Shown one piece after another: positions 55,922 through 63,138 of a stretch of DNA of 64,000 nt. Position numbers and translations under genes: made by a program. Every line of letters starts with the position of its first letter. Position 1 is the stretch's first letter. The notes beneath the pieces are model-generated. The model had not been told where the DNA came from. It searched no databases and was given only the letters and a program-made list of their open reading frames with translations. Location: assembly GCF_056746865.1 (NCBI RefSeq), contig NZ_CM163382.1. One strand, given 5' to 3'.

Positions 55922-57073
55922 TTACAGCATCTCAATAAAGGCCGCGACACGGGTACTGAGCTGCCCGACATCCGAGGTGGAGTAGTCTGTTTCAATAGCG
56001 ATATAAGGAATGTTGTGCTGCTGGCGCACATGACGTTTAATCGCCAGCGATTCCACCGCGTAGGTATGGCACGCCTGCAAAATCACATCAACTACGCCAT
56101 CGACCTGATATTCCTCCACCATCTGGCTGAGCATTTTCAGGCGCTGATCGTTCGGCGAAACACAGGAGCAGCCAATCGCCAGATATTTATCCGCCAGCGC
56201 GTCGTAGACATCGCCCGTTTCTGCCACGCATTGCTCGGTCGCTTTCGCCCCGGTGCAGTTTTCATAACCGACAACCCAGCCGCCATTCTCTTCAATCGCG
56301 CGCACCACTTTTTCTGCTGCGCCGCCAATCGGGCAGCCGGTGATTAAAATGCGCGGACGCGGGTCCAGTCGCTGGCCTTCTTCCCACTGCTGACGAACGC
56401 GGGCGGTCATTGCATCCAGTTCATTGATCAACGCCTCTTTATCGAACCGGAAGGTTGCGCCGTAAACCACTTTCAGAATGTCGCTGCCGCTAAGCGCCGG
56501 AGGATTTAACTGCCCAAGATGATAAAAATTAGCCAGTGCGCGACGTTCGCGGTTTTTCAGCGCAATGGCATCGCGCAGAACATCTTCGCTAATCTCGTGC
56601 CCAAAACGTTCTTCTACCGTTTTTTGCAAGCGCAGCATCTCGGCTTTCCATAACGCACGCGAGGCATCGTCCTTAACGCTGTTGGGCAATTGCATCACAT
56701 GAACAGGCTTAAACTCCGCCATGTATTCATACATTTTCTTTTTGCCGTCGCAGGTGGTTTCACCGACCACCAGATCCGAAAAGTAGAAGTAGGGGCATTT
56801 ATCGGTTTTGCCGAAGCCGTAGCTGCTTTTAATCAGCGGGCAGAGGTTGCGCGGCAGATCTTTCTCCGCTTCTTCAATGGTTTCATCAGAGGTGGAACAG
56901 AGCGAAACCACAACCGCACCGGCTGCCATCGGGATCTCTTGCGGCATAAAGGTGCAGTAAGTGCCAACCAGCGGAATGCCGCGCTCCTTGAGATCCATGA
57001 CGGTGAGAAAGCCTGTCTGGCGAGCTTCAGAGAACTGATCGAAAATGGCGGGTAGATCGGTGACAAGTGACAT
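55922..57073 (-). CDS. yjiM: 2-hydroxyacyl-CoA dehydratase D-component-like protein
   Basis: 383 aa from ATG at 57073 (MSLVTDLPAIFDQF..); HgdB/BcrB-like family. Confidence 0.85.
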   Translation of the reverse strand: MSLVTDLPAIFDQFSEARQTGFLTVMDLKERGIPLVGTYCTFMPQEIPMAAGAVVVSLCSTSDETIEEAEKDLPRNLCPLIKSSYGFGKTDKCPYFYFSDLVVGETTCDGKKKMYEYMAEFKPVHVMQLPNSVKDDASRALWKAEMLRLQKTVEERFGHEISEDVLRDAIALKNRERRALANFYHLGQLNPPALSGSDILKVVYGATFRFDKEALINELDAMTARVRQQWEEGQRLDPRPRILITGCPIGGAAEKVVRAIEENGGWVVGYENCTGAKATEQCVAETGDVYDALADKYLAIGCSCVSPNDQRLKMLSQMVEEYQVDGVVDVILQACHTYAVESLAIKRHVRQQHNIPYIAIETDYSTSDVGQLSTRVAAFIEML

Positions 57074-57188
57074 GATTTTCCTTCCCCGTACCACGGGAGA
57101 TAATGAAAAGAGGCCACATTATTACCATTCTTTTAGTATGGTTTATTTGATCTCTCTCGCGGTTAGCCACTTAGTTTTTCATGGATTT

Positions 57189-58469
57189 CTAAAAATTGCC
57201 GAGGGGGAACAAGGCCGGGAGCTGCGACAGCAAATATAAAATTAGCCCAATACAACCGCCAACCAGCGTACCGTTGACACGAATAAACTGCAGATCTTTG
57301 CCGATATTTAACTCTATTTGCCGCGACATATCCCGCGCATCCCAGCTTTTTACCGTATCGCTGATGTGGCGCGTCAGGAATGCGGAAAACTCAGGCGCGA
57401 CGCGGTGCGCGGCTTGTTCAAGATGACCATTTAACGACGCCCGCAAGGCATCATCGGCAATTAACGTTTCGCCAAACCATTGACCCGCTCGTGCGATGCG
57501 TTCTTTCACACGAGAATCTTCACTGTTGATATCCACTTTCAGCCATTCCCGTAAATCCCCCCACAATTCACTGAGATAGCGATTAAAAGCTTCATCTTCT
57601 TTCAGATAGCTTTTTACGGCATCGGCTCGCGCTGCCATTTCCGGATCGTTTTTCAGCTTGTCGATCAGGGCGAAGGTGGCGCGATCAAACGCATGGCGGA
57701 TCTGATGCGCACGATCGCGACTAATATCATCAAGCAAAGAATTCACCGCGTCAGAAACCAACTCCGCGCTATGTTCGCCCAACCATTCGGTGGGGAGAAT
57801 TTTGGCTTTCAGTGGATGCTCGCTCTCCAGCCAGCGAACAATTTGCTGGGCGATAAACTTGCGCGATTTATCGCGCTGGAGAAGGGCGATCAACTGTGCG
57901 ATCAGCGTATCCAGCAGCACCTGATGACGATCGTTTTTGGTCATACTCTCCAGCATCAACGCACTGGTGCCGGAAAGATCGACCTTATCAATCGCCCGAT
58001 GGACCGCGCGCTTAAGCAGGCGCTGAATACGCGCATCATCGGTAAGTTCGAGAAAACCGCTCATGATCTGCAACAGATGCTGACCAACGCGGCGGGCGTT
58101 TTCTGGCTGGCTAAACCAGTTGCCAATCAGCAACGCCGGTTCGTGGCGTCGAATCAATGCCACCAGGGATTGAGTATCAAGAAATTTTTCCTGCACGAAC
58201 TGGCCGAGATTTTCGCCAATCCGGTCTTTATTACGCGGGATAATCGCCGTATGGCGAGAAATGATCGGAATCGGCACGCGGCGAAACAGCGCCACCACCG
58301 CAAACCAGTCCGCCAGCGCGCCGACCATCGCCGCTTCAGCAATCGCCTTCACGCCGCTCACCCAAAAATTGGGCGGCAAAAACAGCGTAACGACAAAGGT
58401 AGCAGCGGCGATAAGCAGTAAAGAGAGCGCCAACCTTTTGGCGCGTCTGAGTTCGATGAGTTTATTCAT
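57189..58469 (-). CDS. yjiN: DUF445-family inner-membrane protein YjiN
   Basis: 426 aa; N-terminal membrane segments then a long helical domain. Confidence 0.85.
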
Positions 58470-58509
58470 AACGTTAAGAATAGAGCCTGACGGCCGGATC
58501 GCGCAAAAA

Positions 58510-59742
58510 TCACTGCTCCTCCACTAGCTCGGCTGCCTGATGCTGGCGCACGCGATTGAGCAATCCCGCCAGGGTGAAAACGACGATAACGCCCGCCACA
58601 ACGGCTAACAGATGAAACGGCAAGCGACCGCCGTTAAACCATAGCCAGCGGCCGATTTCGACCGAGACCGACATCACCATCAGGATCACCATATTTAGCG
58701 ATGCGGAGACGGTCCCTTTCGGTAACTTATTGGAAAACAGCGTAAAGCGGAATAAGGTCGGGAAAATCAAACCAATCCCGAAAGCATACAGACTGGTGCC
58801 CAGCACCGACCACAGCCAGACGTGCGGCGACAGCAGATTGCCGACAATCAACAGCGAGAGGCCGACCAGTTGAATGGGTACGGCACGCCAGATAAACCGC
58901 GGTTCGGTCGGATCTTTAACAAAACGCGCCACGATGGCATTCGCAACAATCACCGCGCCGAACACCGGAACCTGTGTCCAGGCGAACTGCGAAGTTGTTA
59001 AGCTGCCTGCATCGATAAGGATCACCGGCGAGACAGCCACCCAGCTCATCATCGGGATATAGCTTAAAGAGATGGTTGCTGCGCCAAAGAGGAACAGCCG
59101 ATTGCAAAAGACATTACGAAAATCGCGCAAGACGCTTTTGGCGCTAAACGGAACCGCGCCGCGCTTCACCGTCTCTGGCATCGCCAACAGTAAGCCAACA
59201 AATGAGATAAAACCCATAACCGCAATGATGGCAAAAAGGACTTTCCAGTGCATAAAGTGCATCAGAGCTGCGCCGGAAAGCGGGCCGATAATCGGCGCAA
59301 TCAGTACGATGGAGGTGATAATCGCCATCAACTTGATCCCTTTTGTCTGTCCGAACGCCTCCTGCACCGTGACATAACCAACGGTGGCAATAAAACAGAT
59401 ACTGGTGCCCTGAATTGCACGCGCGATAAGAAACTGTGTCATAGACGTTGTGAACATTGTCGCGGCGCAGGCAAGGGTAAAAATTAGCGCCCCGGTAATC
59501 AGCACCGGCCTGCGGCCAATTCTGTCGGAAAGCGGCCCCAGCAGCCACTGTAACGCCATACCGCCAGCAAGATAGAGACTGACGGCAGCAGGGGCCAGAC
59601 TGACATCGGCATTAAAATCACGTACCACATTAATGATCCCAGGCTGGATCAGATCCGTCGACAGATACGCAGCAAAGTCATACAAAATCAACGCCATCGG
59701 GAAAAACAGCGTGGCGGCATGGCGGGTAAAAAAACGTGGCAT
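58510..59742 (-). CDS. mdtM: MFS multidrug efflux transporter MdtM
   Basis: 410 aa from ATG at 59742 ([20 protein letters not shown]..); MFS DHA1-type motifs ([13 protein letters not shown]). Confidence 0.9.
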
Positions 59743-60220
59743 AACAAACAACTCCTTGTCCGGAGAACCCCAACGGGGAAAACGAAATTCAATACCGTCG
59801 GTAATGACGAAAGGCAGGTGAGAAGGGCAACGAGACTGCAAATGTACTGAATTTCATGTAATCAACCACACTGCCTGTGAACACACAGACAGAGAAATAC
59901 TTTCTGACTTCGGGTCAGAATGTATAACGATTACAAATAGTCATCAGCACATTACACCTCTTGAATTGATGGGTTGCATAGAAAATATACACCTTAAGTG
60001 TAATTAAAATTTGCGGTTAATCAAAAGAGCGCGGTGGAAAGGGGAATATCTGCCGGGTACAGGACATGTAAAACGCGAGCTTGTTTCCGGAAAAATGTAT
60101 CGTTTGCAGAAGAATAAAAATAGCCTGGAAAGCGCCTCGGGGAATGGGAAATTGCCGGGTGAGAATGGTTTTGTTAGTCGCTAAAGTCAGGCCATCTTTT
60201 TCAACAGGTGATGGATCGCC

Positions 60221-61141
60221 ATGACAAACTTCACGACCAGCACGCCGCATGATGCATTATTTAAAACCTTTCTCACGCACCCTGACACTGCGCGGGATTT
60301 TATGGAGATTCATTTACCTAAAGATTTACGTGAACTGTGCGATCTCGATAGCTTAAAACTGGAATCCGCCAGCTTTGTCGATGAAAAATTGCGGGCGCTA
60401 CACTCCGATATTTTATGGTCGGTAAAGACCCGCGAAGGCGATGGCTATATCTATGTGGTGATTGAACATCAGAGCCGCGAGGACATTCATATGGCCTTTC
60501 GCCTGATGCGCTATTCCATGGCGGTGATGCAGCGCCATATAGAGCATGATAAACGCCAGCCGCTACCGTTGGTCATCCCGATGCTATTTTATCACGGTAG
60601 CCGTAGTCCTTACCCCTGGTCCCTGTGCTGGCTGGACGAATTTGCCGACCCGACTACCGCACGGAAGCTTTATAACGCCGCGTTCCCGCTGGTGGATGTT
60701 ACTGTCGTGCCAGACGACGAGATTGTGCAGCATCGCAGAGTCGCCCTGTTGGAGTTGATCCAAAAGCATATTCGCCAGCGCGATCTGATGGGGCTTATCG
60801 ATCAACTGGTAGTATTACTGGTTACAGAGTGTGCTAATGACAGCCAGATAACTGCGCTGTTAAATTACATTTTACTGACTGGCGATGAAGCGCGTTTTAA
60901 TGAGTTTATCAGTGAACTTACCCGTCGAATGCCACAACACAGGGAGCGAATAATGACGATTGCAGAGCGAATTCATAATGATGGATATATAAAAGGGGAG
61001 CAGCGCATTCTTCGATTGTTGTTGCAGAATGGGGCGGATCCTGAATGGATACAAAAGATTACCGGACTTTCGGCAGAGCAAATGCAGGCATTAAGGCAGC
61101 CCTTGCCTGAGCGTGAGCGCTATTCATGGCTCAAGAGTTAA
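60221..61141 (+). CDS. rpnD: Rpn-family (transposase_31 / PD-(D/E)XK) recombination-promoting nuclease-like protein, apparently intact
   Basis: 306-aa uninterrupted ORF; N-terminal PD-(D/E)XK-like region ([12 protein letters not shown]) and YhgA-like C-terminal domain. Confidence 0.8.
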
Positions 61142-61167
61142 TCAGAGACGGATGACAAACGCAAAGC

Positions 61168-61270
61168 AGCCTGATGCGCTATGCTTATCAGGTCTACATA
61201 ACCCATTAAATATATTGAACTTTAAAGATTTTTGTAGACCTGGTCAGGCGTTCACATGGCATCCGGCATG
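61168..61270. repeat. pair of REP palindromic units (BIME-like) between rpnD and yjiR
   Basis: GCCTGATGCGCTATGCTTATCAGGTCTACA and TGTAGACCTGGTCAGGCGTTCACATGGCATCCGGCATG in inverted arrangement. Confidence 0.7.
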
Positions 61271-61384
61271 AACAAAGCGTACTTTGCTTAATTCAGGCTG
61301 GAACGTGGCGATGACCCAGCAAAGATAAAACGAGTCACAGGTTATGCATGAGAGGAAATCAGGCGCTTCGCCGCTATTTCGAAT

Positions 61385-62797
61385 TTATTCCATTGCCCGA
61401 TACACGGCCTCGCCAATTTGCTTCAGTGCTTCGCGATAGGTTTCGCTGAGCGGCAAAGCGCAGTTGATGCGCAGACAATTACGGTATTTGCCGGAAGCTG
61501 AGAAAATCGAGCCTGCCGCCACCTGGATTTTCATGCGGCACAGCTGCCGCGCGACGCAGACCATATCGACCTGTTCAGGCAATTCTATCCACAGTAAAAA
61601 TCCGCCTTTCGGGCGCGTAATACAGATTTCGCAGGGAAAATATTCCCGTATCCAGCAGGTATAAAGCGCCAAATTGCGCTGATAGATCTGCCGCATCCGC
61701 CGGATATGGCGATGATAGTGACCTTCCAGCACAAACGTTGCCGCCGCCATTTGCGTGGACGGCACATTAAAGCTGCTGATGGCGTATTTCATATGCATCA
61801 GTTTATCGTGATAACGCCCCGGTGCGACCCAACCCACGCGCAGGCCTGGTGCAATACTTTTACTGAACGAGCTGCACAACAGCACTCGCCCGTCGATATC
61901 CCAGGAATGAATGGTCCGCGGGCGCGGATACTCCGTCGCCAGTTCGCCATAGACATCATCTTCAAAAATCACAATATCATGACGCTGAGCGAGAGAGAGA
62001 ACGGCCCGTTTGCGCGCGTCCGGCATAATAAATCCCAGCGGATTATTACAGTTTGGCACCAGAATGATGCCTTTAATCGGCCACTGTTCCAGCGCCAGTT
62101 CCAGCGCTTCAACGCTGATGCCAGTTTCTGGATCGGTTGGGATTTCAATCACTTTCACGCCCATGCCGCGCAGCATCTGCATCGAACCGTAATAACAGGG
62201 GGATTCGACCGCGACAATATCGCCCGGTTTACACACTGCCATTAACGCCAGCGACATCGAGTTATGGCAGCCGCTGGTGATGATGATGTCATCGGCGGTG
62301 ACCACCGAGCCGCTGTCGAGCATCAGGCGGGCAATCTGCTCTCGCAATACTCGCTGACCGGCTAACAAGTCATAACCGAGAACGGTTTGCAGATTATGCT
62401 GCACCACCCGGCTTAGCTCCCGCCACAGCGGTTTCAGGCTGGGCGCTTCGACATCCGGTGTGCTTTTGCTTAACGGAACAATGGAACTGTCGCTATGCGC
62501 CTCCAGCATATCCAGCACCTGATCCCACTGGGTAATTTCCACCGGGCGCTGCACCGGACGCGTCATCGGCGGTACTGGCGGCTGGGCTTTACGTTGTGCG
62601 ACAAAATAACCCGAACGCGGCTGCGGAGTGATGAGCTTCATCGTCTCCAGCGTCTGATACGCCTGCTGCACGGTGCTGATACTGACGCCGTGCTCCTGAC
62701 TTAAGCTGCGCACCGACGGCAATTTCTCCCCGTGACGATACAGCCCTTGCTCAATCCGTTCGGCAAGCAGAGTCGCCAGATGTTGATAACGCGTCAT
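61385..62797 (-). CDS. yjiR: MocR-type regulator (GntR HTH fused to PLP-dependent aminotransferase-like domain)
   Basis: 470 aa; N-terminal GntR HTH (LPSVRSLSQEHGVSISTVQQAY) and aminotransferase class I/II-like domain. Confidence 0.9.
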   Translation of the reverse strand: MTRYQHLATLLAERIEQGLYRHGEKLPSVRSLSQEHGVSISTVQQAYQTLETMKLITPQPRSGYFVAQRKAQPPVPPMTRPVQRPVEITQWDQVLDMLEAHSDSSIVPLSKSTPDVEAPSLKPLWRELSRVVQHNLQTVLGYDLLAGQRVLREQIARLMLDSGSVVTADDIIITSGCHNSMSLALMAVCKPGDIVAVESPCYYGSMQMLRGMGVKVIEIPTDPETGISVEALELALEQWPIKGIILVPNCNNPLGFIMPDARKRAVLSLAQRHDIVIFEDDVYGELATEYPRPRTIHSWDIDGRVLLCSSFSKSIAPGLRVGWVAPGRYHDKLMHMKYAISSFNVPSTQMAAATFVLEGHYHRHIRRMRQIYQRNLALYTCWIREYFPCEICITRPKGGFLLWIELPEQVDMVCVARQLCRMKIQVAAGSIFSASGKYRNCLRINCALPLSETYREALKQIGEAVYRAME

Positions 62798-62973
62798 GCT
62801 GTATTCCTTATGTGGACCATACAGAGAGAAAAACCGGTACAGATGAGGCTAAAAAACCGGATGCAGATGCTGTTTTAACCTGTCTGTATGTTAAATAAAA
62901 GTAATATTTGAATCTGTATTGTGAACTGCCAGAAGGTGGATGATGAAGCCTCTGAAAGATGAGGAGGTAGCAG

Positions 62974-63138
62974 ATGGAATTTCACGAAAACAGAGCTAAA
63001 GCGCCGTTTATCGGCTTGGTGCAACTCTGGCAGGCGGTGAGGCGTTGGCGGCGGCAAATGCAGACCCGACGCGTGTTACAGCAGATGAGTGATGAGCGGT
63101 TGAAGGATATCGGGTTACGCAGGGAGGATGTGGAGTGA
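62974..63138 (+). CDS. yjiS: DUF1127 small protein YjiS (54 aa)
   Basis: ATG at 62974 preceded by GAGGAGG; translation MEFHENRAKAPFIGLVQLWQAVRRWRRQMQTRRVLQQMSDERLKDIGLRREDVE; below the 60-aa cutoff of the supplied ORF track. Confidence 0.8.
   Translation: MEFHENRAKAPFIGLVQLWQAVRRWRRQMQTRRVLQQMSDERLKDIGLRREDVE

Follow-up and report, generated by a model that had tools for sequence, protein, structure and literature searches.

The rpnD locus of Escherichia coli raises the question of whether its uninterrupted reading frame in one strain and its division into yjiP and yjiQ in some K-12 records reflect a difference between strains or only between annotations, and of what an intact gene of this kind could do. 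The sequence analysed here, referred to below as the window, is a stretch of 64,000 nucleotides, and both the list of its open reading frames (ORFs) and its raw letters give a single frame of 306 codons plus a stop, starting with ATG, at positions 60221..61141 of the plus strand (Table 1). The DNA from 60000 to 61400 is 100% identical to that of E. coli FDAARGOS_497, whose PGAP annotation contains the identical intact CDS (WP_000181202.1), and the exact 306-aa protein bears the UniRef name “Recombination-promoting nuclease RpnD.” What lies at 60221..61141 is an ordinary unbroken rpnD, the form in which the gene is commonly found and probably its ancestral allele as well.

In K-12 strain MG1655, rpnD (b4584; formerly yjiP, b4338, and yjiQ, b4339) is annotated as a pseudogene whose length, 921 nt, equals that of the window gene, and in the K-12 derivative KLY it is flagged “internal stop” by PGAP. 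A base-by-base comparison with MG1655 found 918 of the 921 nt identical and exactly three substitutions. At window position 60530, a C stands where MG1655 and KLY have T, so that codon 104 reads CAG (Gln) in the window and TAG (amber) in K-12; the other two differences, T against the K-12 C at both 60313 (H31) and 61138 (S306), are synonymous. What splits yjiP from yjiQ in K-12 is therefore a genuine nonsense mutation and not a frameshift or an artefact of annotation, and the full-length protein, RpnD_L, can be made from the window allele but not from that of K-12. The C-to-T transition of K-12 abolishes RpnD_L and leaves unchanged the frame of the predicted small in-frame product, RpnD_S, which is identical in K-12 and in the window, as are the locus and its gene order (mdtM-ytiE-rpnD-yjiR-yjiS-yjiT). 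The split that the first-pass annotation had noted for K-12 records is thus real: it appears in the pseudogene status of the MG1655 gene, in the KLY flag, and in a K-12 gene table that lists “rpnD; yjiP, yjiQ” as one gene with two UniProt entries (PMC9504249). Of the two explanations offered there for the intact frame, strain specificity stands and a difference in annotation only does not, because MG1655 and KLY carry TAG at codon 104; the alignment with the K-12 yjiP/yjiQ region, also suggested there, finds the K-12 copy interrupted at this codon and hence not identical. That most E. coli encode a complete YjiP and that a point mutation in K-12 leads to a premature stop was reported by Kingston et al. 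in 2015 (PMC4498929), and the strain difference in rpnD intactness is accordingly already known.

Among 5,426 complete E. coli genomes, 4,255 contained the rpnD locus, and the median number of places in each was one. Exact matches to an 81-nt allele probe centred on codon 104 were counted among the same 5,426 genomes. The CAG version matched 253 of them, including B-type strains and many clinical isolates, which makes a sequencing error at 60530 unlikely, and the TAG version matched 339; all 13 of the exact TAG matches listed appear to be laboratory derivatives of K-12. Public collections contain the exact 306-aa protein on at least 1,000 contigs, and the gene was intact at six of ten further sampled loci (those of S65EC, ATCC 8739, PA8, CUPS TF 6/1_01, FDAARGOS_1289, and Z1323HEC0355). 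The intact CAG 81-mer is also found in RR1, ET12567, and the “K-12 MG1655” records CP010444 and CP010440, all of them labelled K-12 or K-12-derived, with two matching places each in CP010444 and CP010440; such records presumably come from hybrid or engineered strains.

The assignment of the gene product to the Rpn family is unambiguous. The Pfam domain PF04754 (Transposase_31, “putative transposase, YhgA-like”) matches residues 8-210 (E value 4.5e-87; 291.3 bits against a cutoff of 21), and with 160.6 bits the protein also exceeds the cutoff of 52.1 set for the NCBIfam model TIGR01784 ([quoted passage not shown]). With both scores above their cutoffs, the first-pass reading of this stretch as an uninterrupted 306-aa rpnD frame encoding an Rpn/Transposase_31 nuclease is upheld. 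Its domain layout needs correction in one half: the putative PD-(D/E)XK core does lie in the N-terminal region, but the YhgA-like Pfam domain occupies the N-terminal two-thirds of the protein, not its C terminus, and residues from about 211 to 306 form a variable tail outside that domain. The score against the RpnA equivalog model NF007361 (392.6 bits) falls below the cutoff of 583, so that RpnD is a paralog of RpnA and not RpnA itself.

In a five-paralog alignment, RpnD shows 59, 63, 49, and 56% identity to K-12 RpnA, RpnB, RpnC, and RpnE, respectively, and residues D11, D63, E82, H83, Q84, R94, and P164-D165-D166-E167 are invariant across RpnA-E, with the codons checked in the raw sequence. 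The catalytic residues, whose comparison with RpnA-C the first-pass annotation had proposed, are thus all in place (D11, D63, E82, Q84, R94, and PDDE). RpnA (YhgA), the biochemically characterised exemplar of the family, is encoded at a different locus (feoC-rpnA-bioH), and its C-terminal end is 13 residues shorter than that of RpnD, which nevertheless keeps every functional residue tested in RpnA. The RpnA substitutions D11A, D63A, E82A, and Q84K each eliminate all three in vivo phenotypes, D63A being inactive both in vivo and in vitro, whereas R94A loses the promotion of recombination and D165A is hyperactive (PMC5350276). Divalent-cation-dependent DNA endonuclease activity in vitro has been reported for RpnA only (PMC5350276).

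An AlphaFold2 model of RpnD built from the five-sequence alignment has low confidence (pLDDT 53.6), and its order of secondary structure elements (strands 40-47, 64-70, and 76-84, helix 91-109, and strand 117-124) fits a PD-(D/E)XK core, a fold of the alpha-beta-beta-beta-alpha-beta type, with strand 64-70 starting just past D63 and strand 76-84 bearing E82 and Q84. A Foldseek comparison of this low-confidence model with the PDB gave no match at an E value of 0.001 or lower, the best hits being tRNA-splicing endonuclease subunits (E value 0.048). The putative PD-(D/E)XK fold of RpnD rests on the conservation of the motif plus the published classification of the family.

Table 1. Features of the rpnD locus and its neighbourhood in the window, with positions, strand, and source of the assignment
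Feature	Position	Strand	Source
mdtM, upstream neighbour, synteny marker	58510..59742	-	ORF list; K-12 and FDAARGOS_497 annotation
ytiE, small K-12 gene, unchanged in the window	59915-59950	-	Comparison with K-12
RpnD_L, full-length intact rpnD ORF, 306 aa plus stop	60221..61141	+	ORF list, raw sequence, Pfam, NCBIfam
Transposase_31/YhgA-like domain, residues 8-210, containing the putative PD-(D/E)XK core	60242..60850	+	PF04754
D11 codon	60251..60253	+	Invariant; RpnA D11A mutant data
D63 codon, predicted catalytic Asp in the PD-(D/E)XK motif	60407..60409	+	Invariant; RpnA D63A mutant data
E82-H83-Q84 codons, E-x-Q variant of the (D/E)xK motif	60464..60472	+	Invariant; RpnA E82A and Q84K data
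R94 codon	60500..60502	+	Invariant; RpnA R94A data
Codon 104, CAG (Gln); TAG (amber) in K-12, source of the yjiP/yjiQ split	60530..60532	+	Comparison with MG1655 and KLY
PDDE motif, residues 164-167, non-core part of the domain	60710..60721	+	Invariant; RpnA D165A data
Sigma-70-like site ATGACA-18-TAAATT with TG, candidate internal promoter	60837..60866	+	Consensus scan
Shine-Dalgarno sequence AGGGAG for the internal start	60941..60946	+	Anti-Shine-Dalgarno pairing, dG -7.4
Predicted RpnD_S, 62 aa, M245-S306, small antitoxin/oligomerisation domain, in frame with RpnD_L	60953..61141	+	Paralog alignment, 7TH0, Shine-Dalgarno ranking
Hypervariable spot, residues about 255-258 (GYIK); 1-3 extra 4-aa repeats in other alleles	60983..60994	+	Allele alignment
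yjiR, downstream neighbour, synteny marker	61385..62797	-	ORF list; K-12 and FDAARGOS_497 annotation

The C-terminal part of rpnD carries the signals of a second start. M245 and T246 are invariant in all five paralogs, and the AGGGAG sequence located 6 nt upstream of M245 (ATG at 60953) gives the strongest pairing with the 16S anti-Shine-Dalgarno sequence when all in-frame ATG, GTG, and TTG codons are ranked. The aligned Met ranks first in this respect in every paralog, including M244 of RpnA, the internal start that has been proven experimentally (PMC10400941), and the counterpart of AGGGAG is the ribosome-binding site that was mutated in RpnA (K240R+E241D; PMC10400941). The only PDB relative of RpnD, 7TH0, is the crystallised small protein of RpnA (49 aa), whose residue 1 aligns to M245 and which spans RpnD residues 245-292, so that RpnA with its RpnA_S antitoxin and RpnD share an internal Met and Shine-Dalgarno sequence at the same aligned position. 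Taken from the paralog alignment, 7TH0, and the Shine-Dalgarno ranking, translation would most likely start at Met245 in the frame of RpnD_L and yield the 62-aa RpnD_S. In-frame internal starts in all five rpn genes have also been seen by ribosome profiling with retapamulin and Onc112 (bioRxiv 10.1101/520783; PMC10400941), and internal transcription start sites have been reported in all rpn genes (PMC10400941). In rpnD, a sigma-70-like site precedes the internal ATG by about 87 nt, in a promoter scan whose number of matches equals the chance expectation. In MG1655, all five Rpn_S proteins were detected, with full-length forms for RpnB, RpnC, and RpnE only (PMC10400941); the absence of RpnD_L there fits the K-12 amber codon, although the rpnD stop is not mentioned in that work.

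Past M245, rpnD alleles diverge. Natural alleles encode 306, 310, 314, or 318 aa and differ by 12-nt units located about 11 residues after M245; the window allele, like that of K-12, belongs to the shortest repeat class seen. The alleles of S65EC and CUPS TF 6/1_01 (318 aa), ATCC 8739 (314 aa), and PA8 (310 aa) occupy the same locus, are intact, and have nuclease domains with 96-97.5% protein identity to that of the window, from which they differ by 1-3 extra 4-aa repeats and by more substitutions in RpnD_S. Substitutions between the window allele and other alleles amount to 2.5-4.1% in residues 1-244 and to 4.8-25.8% in residues 245-306. Rpn_S regions have been described as hypervariable, with 4-aa repeat variation setting the specificity between Rpn_L and Rpn_S (PMC10400941), and rpnD shares the trait noted by Zhong et al. 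in 2023, a 4-aa repeat region that begins 8-20 residues after the internal Met.

Two further lineages carry lesions in this same segment. In BL21(DE3) and in the “strain C” record CP029371, an IS1A element is inserted in rpnD at about codon 256 (corresponding to window position ~60985), with the BL21 junction read from translation and annotation. The element sits at the hypervariable 4-aa-repeat spot, and with it the C-terminal tail is lost along with nearly the whole of RpnD_S. The O157:H7 strains LSU61, Z892, and FRIK2069 have one identical 958-nt rpnD with a 25-nt tandem duplication (ATAATGACGATTGCAGAGCGAATTC) across the internal start ATG (corresponding to window positions ~60950-60975). 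This duplication frameshifts RpnD_L, and the second copy of the ATG opens an intact RpnD_S frame that lacks the AGGGAG Shine-Dalgarno sequence. In PA8, a strain of the O157 group, the allele is intact (310 aa). K-12, B-type strains, and typical O157:H7 thus each carry a different rpnD lesion, and the window strain carries none.

Considered together, these features make it very probable that the intact rpnD, at its usual mdtM-yjiR site, encodes a PD-(D/E)XK endonuclease, RpnD_L, plus a predicted in-frame RpnD_S and so represents a gene-within-gene toxin-antitoxin system. RpnD_L would act as a DNA endonuclease of the Transposase_31/YhgA-like type, with a nuclease chemistry suggested by homology to RpnA, RpnB, RpnC, and RpnP2, and its excess would damage the chromosome, leading to SOS induction, toxicity in recA- cells, and RecA-independent recombination. 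RpnD_S is expected, again from homology, to bind the C-terminal domain of the matching RpnD_L and to restrain the nuclease. Such a pair would be of the kind proposed for phage defence, a role that may extend to RpnD through its relatives. Zhong et al. (PMC10400941) interpreted the Rpn genes as toxin-antitoxin systems of the gene-within-gene type that act against phages; inhibition of the cognate Rpn_L by Rpn_S was shown for RpnA, RpnB, and RpnC, and phage protection was demonstrated only for the plasmid-borne RpnP2 (PMC10400941). The PADLOC-DB v2 defence models gave no match; a model for Rpn is apparently missing from the 2023 library.

The reading frame, the codon 104 substitution, the residue conservation, the internal-start signals, the synteny, and the allele counts were established in this work; toxicity, SOS induction, and recombination are known from the repaired K-12 RpnD, and the RpnD_S protein is known from K-12. 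The repaired gene, yjiPc, was synthesised by Kingston et al. in 2015; it increased recA-independent recombination about 5-fold, killed recA- cells, and induced the SOS response (PMC4498929). The K-12 gene was later renamed rpnD by Kingston et al. in 2017, who found that loss of the last 45 residues weakens the protein (PMC5350276). This yjiPc, or “WT RpnD” (PMC4498929, PMC5350276), is likewise a 921-nt gene, and its product is likely identical to that of the window ORF if the stop was repaired to Gln; it differs in being a synthetic construct under rhaBp at attTn7, while the window rpnD is a natural gene at its native locus.

An intact gene could still be effectively silent, with RpnD_L scarcely made, RpnD_S as the only form expressed, and the intact and K-12 alleles phenotypically equivalent under most conditions, and this is the alternative that survives best, being possible although somewhat unlikely. 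Transcripts and proteins of the Rpn_S forms outnumber the full-length ones, and RpnA_L, whose gene has no stop codon, is likewise undetectable in K-12 (PMC10400941); the annotated rpnD start codon has no top-ranking Shine-Dalgarno sequence, and RpnD_L has been lost in three lineages with no obvious harm. However, the nuclease domain is retained across divergent alleles, all catalytic residues included, at the low substitution level given above for residues 1-244, which suggests continued selection for the full-length protein in the majority of strains.

Another view of the natural role of RpnD is RecA-independent recombination, serving the horizontal replacement of the immigration control region, instead of phage defence by a toxin-antitoxin pair; we consider it quite unlikely. 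It draws on the 4.5- to 5-fold increase in recA-independent recombination caused by the overexpressed repaired gene (PMC4498929, PMC5350276) and on the fact that rpnD borders the immigration control region (PMC4498929). This effect, however, requires overexpression, the exchanges promoted by YjiPc are not targeted to the immigration control region (PMC4498929), and deletion of rpnA-D left basal recombination unchanged, a result to be read with the K-12 rpnD being already null (PMC5350276). In addition, the internal antitoxin frame and the hypervariability of the 4-aa repeats are better explained by control of a toxin and an arms race with phages.

The genomic setting bears on two further alternatives. 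The mdtM-rpnD-yjiR synteny is the same as that of K-12 rpnD, and from 56223 to 64000, the window differs from K-12 by only five mismatches. Its last 14 kb is collinear with FDAARGOS_497 (1 mismatch), and its first 50 kb is not (21,988 mismatches, resulting from offset). Outside the K-12-like end, the window has non-K-12 content that best matches clinical and environmental isolates, so that its source is a natural strain and not K-12. According to the annotation of the best-matching strains, positions 1-25000 include mtnK/mtnA, an antirestriction protein, remnants of YeeU/CbtA-type toxin-antitoxin systems, and IS elements. The Pfam name “Transposase_31” and the 386.8-bit match to NF007418 (“ISNCY family transposase”) could suggest that rpnD belongs to an IS-like element as its autonomous transposase. 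This is very improbable and was rejected: the NF007418 score is below the 583-bit cutoff, a repeat search of the flanks found no terminal inverted or direct repeats around rpnD, and each of the genomes examined has the gene at a single constant position, between mdtM and yjiR. Zhong et al. (PMC10400941) and the accompanying commentary agree that the Rpn family are not transposons. The view that K-12 is uninterrupted too and that the yjiP/yjiQ split is a matter of annotation in older records can appeal to the listing of both names as synonyms of one gene in K-12 tables (PMC9504249) and to the unchanged length of the K-12 locus but is practically eliminated by the TAG codon in MG1655 and KLY, the PGAP “internal stop,” the presence of the TAG allele in 339 assemblies, and the published premature stop (PMC4498929).

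Other features of the neighbourhood vary between strains. In FDAARGOS_1289 and Z1323HEC0355, rpnD directly follows yjiN, with no mdtM, and downstream either DUF262/GmrSD restriction genes replace yjiR or a shortened yjiR lies beside symE and a type I restriction fragment; with such neighbours, rpnD stands at the variable border of a defence island. The yjiT gene begins in the window at 63637-64000 (plus strand) and runs off its end. In FDAARGOS_497, yjiT is intact (3,291 nt), and a DEAD/DEAH helicase gene follows it. The K-12 copy ends prematurely at 1,518 nt, which makes yjiT a further gene at the margin of the immigration control region whose truncation is specific to K-12. The rpnD-yjiR intergenic region contains a REP/BIME-like palindrome (61169-61247) with arms at 61184-61210 and 61221-61247 that are 78% complementary. 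At 61169 lies the 14-mer GCCTGATGCGCTAT, which is found again within rpnD at 60501. An Rfam scan of positions 58000-64000 gave one sub-threshold match, to the ES036 (CssrF) sRNA at 61190-61232 on the minus strand (30.3 bits; gathering score, 37.6).

On the reading of rpnD as a gene-within-gene toxin-antitoxin system, a broader and more speculative proposal can be formulated, which we regard as unlikely. At least three lineages have each lost RpnD_L on their own (through the amber codon 104 in K-12, IS1 in B-type strains, and the duplication in O157:H7), a loss that may reflect selection against the toxin, and the intact RpnD_L/RpnD_S pair of natural isolates would be a functioning module of phage defence that guards the margin of the immigration control region. 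If so, K-12 would keep an orphan antitoxin. Suppressor strains with supE44 (glnV) insert Gln at UAG, and we infer that read-through in K-12 strains carrying supE44 would restore precisely the wild-type RpnD_L, with Gln at codon 104. The independent lesions of B-type and O157:H7 strains and the restoration of the native Gln by supE are the mildly new points of this analysis, and they come from related loci, not from the window.

For the window gene, there is little consequence beyond correct annotation. Because the K-12 reference shows rpnD as a pseudogene, gene lists based on K-12 under-report one potentially active nuclease toxin of natural isolates. Studies of Rpn proteins, RecA-independent recombination, and phage defence that are carried out in K-12, B-type strains, or typical O157:H7 miss RpnD_L, since the K-12 gene is null and the others have lesions of their own.
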